Origin: Escherichia coli
GTDB taxonomy: Bacteria; Pseudomonadota; Gammaproteobacteria; Enterobacterales; Enterobacteriaceae
NCBI RefSeq assembly: GCF_003790525.1
Contig: NZ_CP033635.1
Strand: one strand, 5' to 3'
DNA: 64,000 bases
Shown here: one piece after another, positions 4,062 to 11,633 of the stretch
How the letters are laid out: each line of letters begins with the position of its first letter
How positions within the stretch are numbered: the stretch's first letter is position 1
Translations under genes and position numbers: made by a program
Notes under the pieces: model-generated
Told to the model about the DNA's origin: nothing
Databases searched by the model: none
The model's input: the letters and a program-made list of their open reading frames with translations, nothing else

Positions 4062-5216
4062 TTACTTCAGACCGGCAGCATCGCGCAGCAGCTGCGCTTT
4101 GTCGGTTTTTTCCCACGGGAAATGTTCGCGACCAAAGTGACCGTATGCTGCGGTTTCTTTGTAGATCGGGTGCAGCAGATCCAGCATCTGAATCAGACCG
4201 TATGGACGCAGGTCAAAGAACTCACGTACCAGCAGAGTCAGTTGTTCAGAAGGCACTTTCTCGGTACCGAAAGTTTCCACCATGATAGAGGTCGGTTCAG
4301 CCACGCCGATTGCGTAGGAAACCTGAATTTCACAACGATCGGCCAGGCCAGCAGCAACGATGTTTTTCGCGACATAACGTGCTGCGTACGCTGCGGAACG
4401 GTCCACTTTTGATGGATCTTTACCAGAGAATGCACCACCACCGTGACGTGCCATGCCGCCGTAGGTATCAACGATAATTTTACGACCAGTCAGACCGCAG
4501 TCACCCATCGGGCCACCGATAACAAAACGACCGGTCGGGTTGATGAAGAATTTGGTGGCAGAAGTCAGCCATTCAGCCGGCAGAATCGGCTTGATGATCT
4601 CTTCCATTACCGCTTCTTGCAGCGATTTCTGGTCGATTTCTTCAGAGTGCTGAGTGGAAAGCACGACAGCATCGATACCAACGATTTTGCCGTCGTCATA
4701 CTGGAAAGTCACCTGGCTTTTCGCGTCCGGGCGCAGCCACGGCAGAGTGCCGTTTTTACGCACTTCAGCCTGACGCTGTACCAGACGGTGTGCATAGGTG
4801 ATAGGCGCTGGCATCAGCACGTCGGTTTCATTGGTTGCGTAGCCAAACATCAGACCCTGGTCACCCGCGCCCTGTTCCAGCGGATCGGCACGGTCAACGC
4901 CCTGGTTGATGTCAGGAGACTGTTTACCGATGGCGCTCAGAACCGCACAGGAGTTAGCGTCAAAGCCCATGTCGGAATGCACATAGCCAATTTCGCGAAC
5001 GGTGTTACGGGTGATCTCTTCGATGTCTACCCAGGCGCTGGTGGTGATTTCGCCGCCAACTAAAACCATGCCGGTTTTTACGTAGGTTTCGCAAGCAACG
5101 CGTGCTTTCGGATCCTGTTCGAGGATCGCGTCTAAAACGGCATCAGAGATTTGGTCAGCAATTTTGTCAGGATGCCCTTCAGAGACGGACTCGGACGTAA
5201 AAAGGTGTTTTGCCAT
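4062..5216 (-). CDS. metK: S-adenosylmethionine synthetase
   Basis: ORF 4062..5228; [32 protein letters not shown] matches MetK; start at internal Met. Confidence 0.95.
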
Positions 5217-6010: not shown

Positions 6011-7987
6011 ATGTCTGACGACATGTCTATGGGTTTGCCTTCGTCAGCGGGCGAACACGGTGTACTACGCTCCATGCAGGAGGTTGCAATGAGCTCCCAG
6101 GAAGCCAGCAAGATGCTGCGTACTTACAATATTGCCTGGTGGGGCAATAACTACTATGACGTTAACGAGCTGGGCCACATTAGCGTGTGCCCGGACCCGG
6201 ACGTCCCGGAAGCTCGCGTCGATCTCGCGCAGTTAGTGAAAACTCGCGAAGCACAGGGTCAGCGTCTGCCTGCACTGTTCTGTTTCCCACAGATCCTGCA
6301 GCACCGTTTGCGTTCCATTAACGCCGCGTTCAAACGTGCGCGGGAATCCTACGGCTATAACGGCGATTACTTCCTTGTTTATCCGATCAAAGTTAACCAG
6401 CACCGTCGCGTGATTGAGTCCCTGATTCATTCGGGCGAACCGCTGGGCCTGGAAGCCGGTTCCAAAGCGGAGTTGATGGCGGTGTTGGCACATGCTGGCA
6501 TGACCCGTAGCGTCATCGTCTGCAACGGTTATAAGGACCGCGAATATATCCGCCTGGCATTAATTGGCGAGAAGATGGGCCACAAGGTCTATCTGGTCAT
6601 TGAGAAGATGTCAGAAATTGCCATTGTGCTGGATGAAGCAGAACGTCTGAATGTCGTTCCTCGTCTGGGCGTGCGTGCACGTCTGGCTTCGCAGGGCTCG
6701 GGTAAATGGCAGTCCTCCGGCGGGGAAAAATCGAAGTTCGGCCTGGCGGCGACTCAGGTACTGCAACTGGTTGAAACGCTGCGTGAAGCCGGGCGTCTCG
6801 ACAGCCTGCAACTGCTGCACTTCCACCTCGGTTCGCAGATGGCGAATATTCGCGATATCGCGACAGGCGTTCGTGAATCCGCGCGTTTCTATGTGGAACT
6901 GCACAAGCTGGGCGTCAATATTCAGTGCTTCGACGTCGGCGGCGGTCTGGGCGTGGACTATGAAGGCACCCGTTCGCAGTCCGACTGTTCGGTGAACTAC
7001 GGCCTCAATGAATACGCCAACAACATCATCTGGGCGATTGGTGATGCGTGTGAAGAAAATGGTCTGCCACATCCGACAGTAATCACCGAGTCGGGTCGTG
7101 CGGTGACTGCGCATCACACCGTGCTGGTGTCAAATATCATCGGCGTGGAACGTAACGAATACACGGTGCCGACTGCGCCTGCAGAAGACGCACCGCGCGC
7201 ATTGCAAAGCATGTGGGAAACCTGGCAGGAGATGCACGAACCGGGAACTCGCCGTTCTCTGCGTGAATGGTTACACGACAGCCAGATGGATCTGCACGAT
7301 ATTCATATCGGCTACTCTTCCGGCACCTTTAGCCTGCAAGAACGCGCATGGGCTGAGCAGCTTTATTTGAGCATGTGCCATGAAGTGCAAAAGCAGCTGG
7401 ATCCGCAAAACCGTGCTCATCGTCCGATTATCGACGAGCTGCAGGAACGTATGGCGGACAAAATGTACGTCAACTTCTCGCTGTTCCAGTCGATGCCGGA
7501 TGCGTGGGGGATCGACCAGTTGTTCCCGGTTCTGCCGCTGGAAGGGTTGGATCAAGTGCCGGAACGCCGCGCTGTGCTGCTGGATATTACCTGTGACTCT
7601 GACGGTGCTATTGATCACTATATTGATGGTGATGGTATTGCCACGACAATGCCAATGCCGGAGTACGATCCAGAGAATCCGCCGATGCTCGGTTTCTTCA
7701 TGGTCGGCGCATATCAGGAGATCCTCGGCAACATGCACAACCTGTTCGGTGATACCGAAGCGGTTGACGTGTTCGTCTTCCCTGACGGCAGCGTAGAAGT
7801 AGAACTGTCTGACGAAGGCGATACCGTGGCGGATATGCTGCAATATGTACAGCTCGATCCGAAAACGTTGTTAACCCAGTTCCGTGATCAAGTGAAGAAA
7901 ACCGATCTTGATGCTGAACTGCAACAACAGTTCCTTGAAGAGTTCGAGGCAGGTTTGTACGGTTATACCTATCTTGAAGATGAATAA
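6011..7987 (+). CDS. speA: biosynthetic arginine decarboxylase
   Basis: ORF 5999..7987; [45 protein letters not shown] matches SpeA; ATG at 6011. Confidence 0.95.
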
Positions 7988-8004
7988 TTAAGATTATTCC
8001 GCTG

Positions 8005-8045
8005 GCGGGTCGATTTATTTACGTAAATCGGCCCGCTTTCTTTTT
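8005..8045 (+). terminator. speA intrinsic terminator
   Basis: Inverted repeat gcgggtcgattta/taaatcggcccgc followed by tttcttttt. Confidence 0.6.
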
Positions 8046-8132
8046 ATATATTCTTAAAAATAATTTAGCTGCTTTTCTTATTAAATAATCCCCCTACAAT
8101 CGCTGCATTAATTAAATGCAGAGGGAACGGTT

Positions 8133-8864
8133 ATGAAAAAATGGAAAGTACGTAGCGCGTTGATAGCATTAGCCGTGCTGCTGGCCGGTTGTTCCAGTAA
8201 TGCGCAGTATAATAGCAGTGCATCAGGCAATGTCGGCACCGCCTGGGGTGGGGATGTGCACTCATCGGTTCAGGGCGTATCTGCTGAACGAGTCTGGCGC
8301 GATCCGGCAGAGATGATCGTTATTAGTTATTCGACTACTGTTCCTTCGGGCTACGACCGCGTTTATAGCATTCGTATTAACGAACTTGAATATGCTATTC
8401 GCGATGGTAATTTTAATTCTCTACCTATTACGCGGGTTTATGATTCGTCAAATAATGAACCACGCTATATTGTCCATGCCAGAGTAGGAATGAATTATCA
8501 ATTATATGTCCGCAATTACAGTCGTAATACCAACTACGAGATCGTTGCTACGGTTGATGGCCTGGATGTGCTGAACGGCAAGCAAGGTTCGCTGAATAAC
8601 AACGGCTATATTGTGAATGCCGGAGATTCGTTAGCGATTAAAGGATTCCGCAAAGATAAACATACCGAAGCGGCTTTTCAGTTCGCCAACGTTGTTGATT
8701 CCTACGCAGCCAATTCGGCGCAAGGCGATGTGCGTAATACCGGTGTAATCGGCTTTGCCGCCTTTGAATTACAAGGCCCGGCGCAAAACGCGCTGCCGCC
8801 GTGCTCTGGACAAGCCTTTCCGGCGGACAACAATGGCTATGCGCCGCCACCGTGTCGGAAATAG
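8133..8864 (+). CDS. predicted lipoprotein of unknown function (243 aa); not recalled in K-12 between speA and speB
   Basis: Signal peptide MKKWKVRSALIALAVLLAGC with lipobox LAGC; SD gagggaa upstream; own terminator downstream; N/S/Y-rich mature region; lower GC than neighbours by eye. Confidence 0.75.
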   Translation: MKKWKVRSALIALAVLLAGCSSNAQYNSSASGNVGTAWGGDVHSSVQGVSAERVWRDPAEMIVISYSTTVPSGYDRVYSIRINELEYAIRDGNFNSLPITRVYDSSNNEPRYIVHARVGMNYQLYVRNYSRNTNYEIVATVDGLDVLNGKQGSLNNNGYIVNAGDSLAIKGFRKDKHTEAAFQFANVVDSYAANSAQGDVRNTGVIGFAAFELQGPAQNALPPCSGQAFPADNNGYAPPPCRK

Positions 8865-8930
8865 CAACCTCGCTTGATGCCTCGTCCATTTAAGGCGATA
8901 ATTAGCGCAAACTTGTGTTTCGCAAATCCA

Positions 8931-8972
8931 ACCCTTCCTCGTCGGGCCTAACGACGCGGAAGGGTTTTTTTA
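8931..8972 (+). terminator. intrinsic terminator after lipoprotein ORF
   Basis: Hairpin cccttcc...ggaaggg followed by ttttttt. Confidence 0.6.
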
Positions 8973-8999
8973 TATCGACTTTGTAATAGGAGTCCATCC

Positions 9000-9920
9000 A
9001 TGAGCACCTTAGGTCATCAATACGATAACTCACTGGTTTCCAACGCCTTTGGTTTTTTACGCCTGCCGATGAACTTCCAGCCATATGACAGCGATGCTGA
9101 CTGGGTGATTACTGGCGTGCCGTTCGATATGGCCACTTCTGGTCGTGCGGGTGGTCGCCACGGTCCGGCAGCGATCCGTCAGGTTTCGACGAATCTGGCC
9201 TGGGAACACAATCGCTTCCCGTGGAATTTCGACATGCGTGAGCGCCTGAACGTCGTGGACTGCGGCGATCTGGTATATGCCTTCGGAGATGCCCGTGAGA
9301 TGAGCGAGAAGCTGCAGGCGCACGCCGAGAAGCTGCTGGCTGCCGGTAAGCGTATGCTCTCCTTCGGTGGTGACCACTTTGTTACGCTGCCGCTGCTGCG
9401 TGCTCATGCGAAGCATTTCGGTAAAATGGCGCTGGTACACTTTGACGCCCATACCGATACCTACGCTAACGGTTGTGAATTTGACCACGGCACCATGTTC
9501 TATACCGCGCCGAAAGAAGGTCTGATCGACCCGAATCATTCCGTGCAGATTGGTATTCGTACCGAGTTTGATAAAGACAACGGCTTTACCGTGCTGGACG
9601 CCTGCCAGGTGAACGATCGCAGCGTGGATGACGTTATCGCTCAGGTGAAACAGATTGTAGGTGATATGCCGGTTTACCTGACCTTTGATATCGACTGCCT
9701 GGATCCTGCTTTCGCGCCGGGAACCGGTACGCCAGTAATTGGCGGCCTGACCTCCGATCGCGCTATTAAACTGGTACGCGGCCTGAAAGATCTCAACATT
9801 GTTGGGATGGACGTAGTGGAAGTGGCTCCGGCATACGATCAGTCGGAAATCACCGCTCTGGCTGCGGCGACGCTGGCGCTGGAAATGCTGTATATTCAGG
9901 CGGCGAAAAAGGGCGAGTAA
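9000..9920 (+). CDS. speB: agmatinase (agmatine ureohydrolase)
   Basis: 306-aa [38 protein letters not shown]... matches SpeB; arginase-family metal-binding motifs (DAHTD, DIDCLD). Confidence 0.95.
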
Positions 9921-10070: not shown

Positions 10071-11633
10071 ATGGAACGCACTCTTCCCTGGAAGCCCCTT
10101 CTTTGTTTGTTATTTCTTTTATCAACTGGCTGCGATAGAGCAGAAAAACAGAAAATTGCCGCACAGCTGCAACAAGACAAAGAAGCTATTTCCTCTGTCG
10201 TCAAAAAGAGTTATCGCGCATTATGTGGCCCTGAGTTTGTCACCAGCACAGATTCGCACGATCGCCTTGCGGAAATGCAGCAAGTATTTACACCTGCTTT
10301 AATGGAGCCTGTACTGAAATACTGGCAAGAGTCACCCAAAACGTGTAAACGACGTTTCCCCAGTTATAGCGATCCTTCAGCGACCTTCGTCGAAGGCGAC
10401 AAGGCGCAGATTGGTGCTTTTTTTGGTCACCAATCTTATATTGATATTCCAATGGAGTTAATCCGGCAAGGGGATGGTAAATGGAAGATTACTGCGATTG
10501 ATTTTGCATCGTTACACGAGTTTGAAAAAAACGGTCGGGTTACTGGTGAGGTGCAGAAGCAAATAGATTTGCTTAAAAAACGCTCATTCAAGCAACATAG
10601 GGATTCCCCTGTGCTGACGAGGACCGCGCCAGAGCGGGTCAGTAAGTCCCCTTTGACATCGATGGAGCAAACAGTTACGGAGCAAGACTCTTCCTGGCTG
10701 GATGTCTTACTGACAATAGGCAAATATGCCCTTTATCTGGTAGCGATAATACTTATTCTCGCCTTGGTGGCTGTTTTGTGGATTGGTTATGGCCTGGTGT
10801 TCGCCGGACATCGCCTTTTCAAAGCATCCTGTAGAGATCCCTCAATTCAAAAAATTCCTGTGGCTGAACGTTGGGCAATGGCAGTCGGCGCGCCTTATGC
10901 CATTGCGGGTAACAATCACTGGGCGCGACGAGTCGTTAATGATGATTCCGTGGAAGCAGAGAATGATTGCAAAAATGAAGTGGAGTCCCTTGCTGACATG
11001 TGGGGCGTCTTTGATCGGGATTCGTTACTTGAGCAACTCTTAGCTTTGTTTGTAGCAGGACATCGTCCAGTTTATGAAGAACAGATCAAAAACGATAGCG
11101 AAATGCCGGATGCTGAATATCGCGCGTTCGCTCAGCAATTAGCTCAGAACGCGAAATCAAGTAGCGAAGCGAAAGAGCGTTTGTGGCAGCTACAGATGGT
11201 CAGAAAAAATCGACGTAAAATATGCGATATAGATTTTTGTGCCTGGGATATGGTGCGTTTTGTCATGCTATGTAATAGCGGGGCGCAAGTGGGATACATT
11301 ACCCAGCGTGAAATGGTCGATTTTTCGATGCTGGCAGCCAGACGCGTACAGCAACATTACAGAAGCTGGCGCGAATTGGCCGGGCATTTTTTGCTGGCCC
11401 GTTGGTACTGGAAAGCAACGGATAAACGGCACCTGATTACCCATATTCTTTTTAAGAAAGCCATTACATCTTTATTAGAAGAGCAGGGGAGTCCGTGGCG
11501 TACTTTACCCTGGGATACTCCATTACCTGAAGGAACAGAGACGGCTTTTGCCTGGGCTTGTGGCGTAAGCACTGCCGATGTCGTAGAGGTGCGATCGGAT
11601 ACACCAGATAAAGCAATCTACGAAGCGAATTGA
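10071..11633 (+). CDS. hypothetical lipoprotein/membrane protein (520 aa): lipobox N-terminal domain, one TM helix, Trp-rich C-terminal domain (possibly DUF1266-like)
   Basis: N-terminus MERTLPWKPLLCLLFLLSTGC (lipobox LSTGC); hydrophobic helix YALYLVAIILILALVAVLWIGYGLVFAG mid-protein; AT-rich coding sequence; not recalled at this position in K-12. Confidence 0.7.
   Translation: MERTLPWKPLLCLLFLLSTGCDRAEKQKIAAQLQQDKEAISSVVKKSYRALCGPEFVTSTDSHDRLAEMQQVFTPALMEPVLKYWQESPKTCKRRFPSYSDPSATFVEGDKAQIGAFFGHQSYIDIPMELIRQGDGKWKITAIDFASLHEFEKNGRVTGEVQKQIDLLKKRSFKQHRDSPVLTRTAPERVSKSPLTSMEQTVTEQDSSWLDVLLTIGKYALYLVAIILILALVAVLWIGYGLVFAGHRLFKASCRDPSIQKIPVAERWAMAVGAPYAIAGNNHWARRVVNDDSVEAENDCKNEVESLADMWGVFDRDSLLEQLLALFVAGHRPVYEEQIKNDSEMPDAEYRAFAQQLAQNAKSSSEAKERLWQLQMVRKNRRKICDIDFCAWDMVRFVMLCNSGAQVGYITQREMVDFSMLAARRVQQHYRSWRELAGHFLLARWYWKATDKRHLITHILFKKAITSLLEEQGSPWRTLPWDTPLPEGTETAFAWACGVSTADVVEVRSDTPDKAIYEAN

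Follow-up and report, generated by a model that had tools for sequence, protein, structure and literature searches.

An intact lipoprotein gene lies between speA and speB in an Escherichia coli chromosome (contig NZ_CP033635.1, assembly GCF_003790525.1). We found that it is a genuine gene subject to purifying selection, that it is ancestral at this position in Enterobacteriaceae, and that it was lost in the lineage of K-12. The stretch analysed here (the window, 64,000 nucleotides; all positions refer to it unless a locus is named) represents the chromosome region metK-yqgB-speA-speB and is matched at 100% by the complete genome GF131. The speA stop at 7987 and the speB start at 9000 are separated by 1012 bp, compared to 137 bp in K-12 MG1655 (b2938-b2937). 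The original prediction, made from the sequence alone, had put this contrast at about 1 kb versus about 0.1 kb, and an alignment with the K-12 interval confirmed that the open reading frame (ORF) between the two genes is not present there. The features of the locus are collected in Table 1.

The low dN/dS of the ORF (0.06–0.15 compared to the O157, Salmonella and Klebsiella orthologues) and its thousands of homologues show that it is no chance reading frame. The exact protein is present in a public collection, within a 90%-identity cluster of 4753 sequences. Finding the gene is not new, as thousands of genomes already have it in their annotation, where its RefSeq product names are 'hypothetical protein', 'lipoprotein' or 'membrane protein' (the O157:H7 allele is WP_000758914.1).

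Table 1. Coordinates of the lipoprotein gene, its predicted parts, nearby signals and flanking genes in the window
Feature	Position	Strand	Basis
speA, biosynthetic arginine decarboxylase, upstream neighbour	6011..7987	+	ORF; annotated speA in the 100%-identical genome; 658 codons aligned with orthologues
Long-haplotype segment (935 bp); the K-12-type haplotype has a 60-bp spacer instead	7988..8922	.	Haplotype comparison
Terminator-like hairpin (15 bp stem) and T-tract after speA; long haplotype only	8004..8047	+	Folding
-10-like hexamer TACAAT (C at -13) with a weak -35; candidate own promoter	8095..8100	+	Footprint in E. coli, Salmonella and Klebsiella
Shine-Dalgarno GAGGG, 7 nt before the ATG; GGG conserved	8121..8125	+	Sequence, footprint
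Lipoprotein coding sequence, 243 aa and stop; RefSeq 'lipoprotein'/'hypothetical protein'	8133..8864	+	ORF, homologues, dN/dS
Signal peptide with lipobox LAGC; Cys20 the predicted lipidated residue, Ser at +2	8133..8192	+	Sequence; family conservation
Predicted all-beta globular domain, aa 33-215, opening with the conserved GTxWGE strand	8229..8777	+	AlphaFold2 (AF2) model; conservation
Core module, aa 105-215 (YQLxxRNxS...YEIVATVDGLDVLNG...GFRK...AAFxF...YAA...GVIGxAxF), remote DUF7918 relative	8445..8777	+	Profile searches
C-terminal Pro-rich tail with conserved F-P-A-D...Y-A-P-P-P motif and Cys224/Cys241 pair	8778..8861	+	Family alignment
Promoter-like element TTGATG-N17-GATAAT, candidate speB promoter	8874..8902	+	Both E. 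coli haplotypes and eight other enterobacterial sequences
Hairpin (9+5 bp) and T7 in the speB leader, common to K-12	8930..8971	+	Folding, alignment
speB, agmatinase, downstream neighbour	9000..9920	+	ORF; annotation; locus comparison

Distribution and ancestry of the gene

We surveyed 5426 complete E. coli genomes. The long interval, with the gene, occurs in 3550 of them (97–100% identity in every match listed), and 1867 carry the short K-12-type spacer, always with the same shared junction. The handful of remaining genomes include rearranged cases, such as a gene cut by IS1. In E. coli 23CRST038 (locus L097), an IS1 insertion and rearrangement have removed the 5′ part of the lipoprotein gene and parted speB from speA.

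The order speA, lipoprotein gene, speB was found in 14 loci from 9 genera, with orthologues of 53–95% identity in Escherichia (E. whittamii and the cryptic clades), Citrobacter, Kluyvera, Klebsiella, Intestinirhabdus, Phytobacter, Kosakonia, Entomohabitans and Enterobacter sp. Salmonella is a tenth genus in which the gene (STM3085) follows speA; an unrelated gene block comes next, and speB has moved away. In E. albertii the contig ends inside the gene, so that only the downstream speB side is visible. Orthologue identity decreases from 95% to 53% as taxonomic distance grows. The shared position in 10 genera means that K-12 has lost the gene, and does not represent the ancestral background of an insertion in the present strain. 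The original prediction had treated the ORF as an extra gene, which it is relative to K-12, but it is not an addition.

The two E. coli haplotypes share their flanking genes, an identical hairpin with T7 before speB and a TTGAxx-N17-GATAAT element, and differ in that the K-12 interval has neither the first terminator nor any part of the lipoprotein gene. The 60-bp spacer that stands in their place (4089..4148 of K-12-type locus L002) keeps the form TTGAAT-N17-GATAAT. Its identity to the long haplotype over the matching stretch is only 55%, no higher than that of spacers from other genera (46–68%), while the flanking speA, hairpin and speB sequences are 97–100% identical between haplotypes. A strongly diverged spacer between nearly identical flanks argues against a simple recent deletion, and suggests that the short haplotype is either a recombination import or an old dimorphism.

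No flanking direct repeats, insertion sequences or integrase were found around the segment, beyond a 9-nt TTTTTATAT, and the segment does not qualify as an islet. The two copies of this 9-mer (8041..8049 and 8967..8975) follow the two hairpins, lie off the K-12 junction and are probably just T-tracts.

A further copy, 63% identical, was seen away from speA and speB in Citrobacter sp. 18056 (L027, 3971..4732), among unassigned genes on the same strand and adjacent to an IS630 transposase; its neighbours gave no informative family matches except IS630. A contig identical to this one is labelled Chryseobacterium (L026), and probably comes from a contaminated or mislabelled assembly.

Candidate signals before and after the gene

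The original prediction placed the gene between a speA terminator and a terminator of its own. A G+C-rich hairpin directly before a T-tract, the arrangement of an intrinsic terminator, does stand on both sides, with folding energies of -23.4 kcal/mol upstream (8004..8037 plus T-tract, z = -5.45) and -24.4 kcal/mol downstream (8930..8966, with T7 at 8965..8971, z = -4.30); none of 200 shuffled sequences folded as well as either hairpin. The upstream structure is kept with a changed sequence in Salmonella and Klebsiella. The downstream hairpin, however, is not the gene's own, as it is near-invariant, belongs to the speB leader and is identical in K-12, where speA precedes it.

With the speA terminator, a conserved -10-like hexamer and a Shine-Dalgarno sequence in front of it, the gene is probably a transcription unit of its own, with TACAAT as the putative promoter. 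On neither side is the gene joined to its neighbours without an intervening terminator or promoter, as a member of a speAB operon would be. A near-perfect palindrome, CTGCATTAATTAAATGCAG, abuts the Shine-Dalgarno sequence (8103..8121); Salmonella and Klebsiella share only its central AATTAA, and the palindrome could be an operator or a 5′ UTR hairpin. Boxes for sigma-E, RcsB and PurR were sought by eye upstream of the ORF and upstream of speB, and none was convincing or conserved.

Downstream of the gene, the hairpin is near-invariant, including its loop, in seven genera (Escherichia, Citrobacter, Kluyvera, Klebsiella, Intestinirhabdus, Entomohabitans and Enterobacter), while the surrounding spacer has diverged; Phytobacter and Kosakonia have a different speB leader. 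In the alignment all 140 of 140 pair cells are paired, and two pairs are compensatory (A-U/U-A in 5 of 10 sequences and C-G/U-A in one). The T-tract ends 28 nt before the speB ATG. This gap leaves no room for a promoter, and transcripts of speB must therefore read through the terminator-like structure. Consequently, the hairpin is at least as much an element of the speB leader as a terminator of the lipoprotein gene. The promoter-like element upstream of it, conserved as TTGAAG-N17-GATAAT (TTGATG-N17-GATAAT at 8874..8902 in the window), is a candidate start for such transcripts. The hairpin would also end transcription arriving from upstream, and with its U7 it may act as an attenuator in the speB leader. 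An Rfam search of 7900..9100 gave no match at E ≤ 1.

Lipobox, predicted fold and family relationships

The protein begins with MKKWKVRSALIALAVLLAGC, in which a positively charged n-region and a hydrophobic h-region lead into the lipobox L17-A18-G19-C20. This arrangement agrees with the lipoprotein pattern [LVI][ASTVI][GAS]C. The mature protein has a moderately high content of N (10.3%), S (9.4%) and Y (6.3%), and the only other cysteines, C224 and C241, both lie in the Pro-rich tail, so that the sequence bears out the earlier description of a 243-aa lipoprotein with an LAGC lipobox, an N/S/Y-rich mature domain and a C-terminal cysteine pair.

A word-indexed search returned 290 homologues, and the family extends to 2853 clusters of 50% identity at E ≤ 1e-3. 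Matches from AlphaFold DB and from genomes span Gamma-, Beta- and Alphaproteobacteria, Myxococcota and Verrucomicrobiota, all of them unannotated. Cys20 is invariant in an alignment of 35 homologues, and a lipobox is present in 171 of the 183 full-length members. The residue at +2 is S, A, T or G, and Asp occurs there in none of the 171. Lipoproteins without Asp at +2 are sorted to the outer membrane by the Lol '+2 rule', and the product is therefore predicted to be an outer-membrane lipoprotein. Mature cysteines number zero (93 members) or two (71 members) in 164 of the 171 lipobox proteins. Their occurrence in pairs predicts a periplasmic disulfide, and a Cys224-Cys241 bond is probable. The C-terminal motif F-P-x..Y-A-x-P-P is found in 157 of the 183 full-length members.

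These searches yielded many homologues and no characterised family, in line with the original statement that the function is unassigned. Pfam matched neither the window protein, even with hits to E ≤ 10 allowed, nor any of 24 distant members, NCBIfam gave no match that extended past the signal peptide, the PADLOC and PHROG searches returned no family, and the PDB held no sequence relative. Raw matches in Pfam, NCBIfam, PHROGs, PADLOC and the PDB were discarded as signal-peptide noise. No catalytic family was matched in the sequence searches, and we found no literature on the lipoprotein.

An AF2 model built from the 35-sequence alignment (pLDDT 79.7, pTM 0.79) predicts an all-beta sandwich. 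Residues 1-30, the signal and linker, are disordered, the all-beta domain spans residues 34-214 and the tail has lower confidence; across aa 31-210 the pLDDT is 84–96, with the exception of one block at 74. The conserved core (aa 105-215) behaves as a discrete module, being duplicated in tandem in one homologue (P0230). Two distant members (P0261 and P0262) have it on the N-terminal side of the GTxWGE region rather than after it, an order suggestive of circular permutation of the fold within the family.

A core profile made from the lipoprotein clade alone scored 54–65 bits on short secreted bacterial proteins, and one of these, P0313, matches Pfam DUF7918 (PF25534) with an i-E of 1.7e-5. The Pfam model did not match the lipoprotein directly; the transitive profile search and fold homology both did connect the two. 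Sequence and fold evidence thus agree on the link, and the core appears to be a remote relative of DUF7918, though not a member by Pfam's own threshold. What the lipoprotein clade has beyond DUF7918 is the lipoprotein signal, the GTxWGE strand region on the N-terminal side and the Pro-rich tail. DUF7918 occurs in fungi and bacteria, is described mainly for fungal proteins and has, to our knowledge, no known function, and the relationship consequently supplies no mechanism; no paper mentioning DUF7918 was found in the literature search. MATH/TRAF and other peptide-binding beta-sandwiches scored under the level of homology and lacked sequence similarity. Small enterobacterial outer-membrane lipoproteins of the DUF1425/YcfL type are alike in lipobox, linker, single beta domain and presumed periplasmic location. 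The gene is an ordinary, already annotated one, and DUF7918 is the only detectable relative of its product.

Proposed role and competing explanations

We favour, with moderate confidence, the reading that this is a functional gene and its own unit, ancestral and lost in K-12, whose product is an outer-membrane lipoprotein with a non-enzymatic role. The mature protein would face the periplasm, anchored by lipidated Cys20 and followed by a short flexible Ser/Asn linker, the all-beta sandwich and the conserved Pro-rich tail, which in Enterobacteriaceae would be closed by the disulfide. The tethered sandwich may bind or scaffold an envelope protein or glycan partner through a conserved face and the tail. 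The protein would be dispensable in the laboratory and stand outside putrescine synthesis, and a single replacement event would have removed its gene, giving the state now present in about a third of E. coli, including K-12. The statements on localisation and on the gene itself are much firmer than the binding role, which we put forward tentatively, as a possibility short of likely.

Four points weigh against this account. A consensus scan called no sigma-70 promoter upstream of the gene, TACAAT falling below its threshold. The binding role is drawn solely from the fold and from the absence of enzyme motifs. Among the polar residues, several (E136, D142, R173 and N128) are invariant and could form an active or ligand site. 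Finally, the fixed place beside speA across the family could reflect function and not inertia.

The last two points are also the basis of the best-surviving alternative, that the lipoprotein is tied to the arginine-decarboxylase pathway, by binding agmatine or putrescine in the periplasm or as a partner of envelope-associated SpeA. The order with both genes is kept in at least 9 genera and that with speA alone in Salmonella, the conserved polar residues could make a site for a small ligand, and a proteome paper on O157 lists SpeA as periplasmic. Against it, the strong terminator parts the gene from speA, and the promoter-like element and hairpin part it from speB; one-third of E. coli have an intact speA and speB but no copy of the gene, and in Salmonella speB has moved away.

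The neighbourhoods of distant homologues bear further on this alternative. We surveyed 11 places by exact look-up and 80 genome loci. In 38 non-enterobacterial or divergent loci, neither speA nor speB was found within 4–6 kb of the homologue; these loci include Providencia, Proteus, Gilliamella, Trabulsiella, Pseudomonas aeruginosa PA7, Neisseria, Kingella, Paracoccus, Ralstonia and Burkholderia. For Providencia, Proteus, Gilliamella, Pseudomonas, Neisseria, Paracoccus, Ralstonia and others, the absence of both genes within 4 kb counts against a polyamine tie. In Comamonadaceae (L008 6001..7171; L051-L094) the homologue lies inside the his operon, between hisD and hisC in all 25 of 25 loci. 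In 21 of the 25, all Variovorax or Xenophilus, it adjoins the gene for a 115-aa secreted protein that matches no Pfam family; this protein was rejected as a partner, as E. coli does not have it. Apart from these two lineage-specific lodgings there was no conserved neighbour, and elsewhere the adjacent genes were unrelated.

Two independent lodgings in biosynthetic operons, each with its own signals, make positional inertia look likelier than functional coupling. The intact speA and speB of strains without the gene also weigh for inertia, as does SpeB itself, which has been detected as a protein in the long-haplotype strains EDL933 and CFT073 and is therefore still expressed there. Since homologues outside Enterobacteriaceae are never near speA or speB, a role in polyamine metabolism is unlikely. 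A specific form of the idea has a slightly slimmer chance: that the lipoprotein is an envelope component of the arginine-to-putrescine route, for instance a periplasmic agmatine or putrescine binder or an anchor of SpeA. A second, separate reading of this kind would make the hairpin-U7 between the conserved promoter-like element and speB an attenuator controlled by a ligand or protein.

Equally slim is the chance that the product is a surface-exposed lipoprotein, or one that interacts with host or phage, whose presence and absence are kept by selection through receptor avoidance or immune pressure. The 65%/35% dimorphism inside one species fits such a history, as do disrupted alleles (a 174-aa truncation in 448 sequences and the IS1 cut), protein-level evolution about 10 times faster than that of speA, and the 63%-identical copy beside a transposase in the Citrobacter isolate. 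However, the dN/dS is well under 1 and gives no sign of diversifying selection, the single short-haplotype junction fits one neutral loss, and the searches gave no PADLOC or phage-family signal.

A decaying, unexpressed relic is very improbable: the protein is not among the detected proteins listed for O157, and a third of strains dispense with it, but its dN/dS is low, the 243-aa frame is intact in 4753 near-identical sequences, and the Shine-Dalgarno and -10-like elements are conserved. Weakest of all is the reading that a comparison with K-12 alone would suggest, the recent gain of an islet by an originally short speA-speB spacer, for which the ORF's G+C content (0.42–0.46, compared to 0.53–0.58 in speA and speB) and its absence from K-12 would speak, and which is refuted by the synteny across 10 genera, with identity tracking taxonomic distance, and by the lack of flanking repeats, insertion sequences and integrase.

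Outside the interval, a further accessory gene lies between speB and loiP (10071..11633, + strand). Its 520-aa ORF has a lipobox-like N-terminus, LLSTGC; the product is annotated as a DUF1266 domain-containing protein and occurs in only 210 of the 5426 genomes.

Returning to the favoured reading of an ancestral envelope lipoprotein, its gene illustrates how reliance on K-12 hides genes: it is carried by about two-thirds of E. coli, including enterohaemorrhagic and uropathogenic strains, and by Salmonella and Klebsiella. Its family comprises thousands of sequences, for which we found no Pfam domain, structure or literature, and the DUF7918 link would connect this bacterial envelope family with a fungal domain, neither having an assigned function. 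The promoter-plus-hairpin leader before speB poses a small, testable regulatory question. If the lipoprotein were a component of the putrescine route after all, its loss from K-12 would have kept out of sight a part of polyamine physiology that is at work in most E. coli, Salmonella and Klebsiella.
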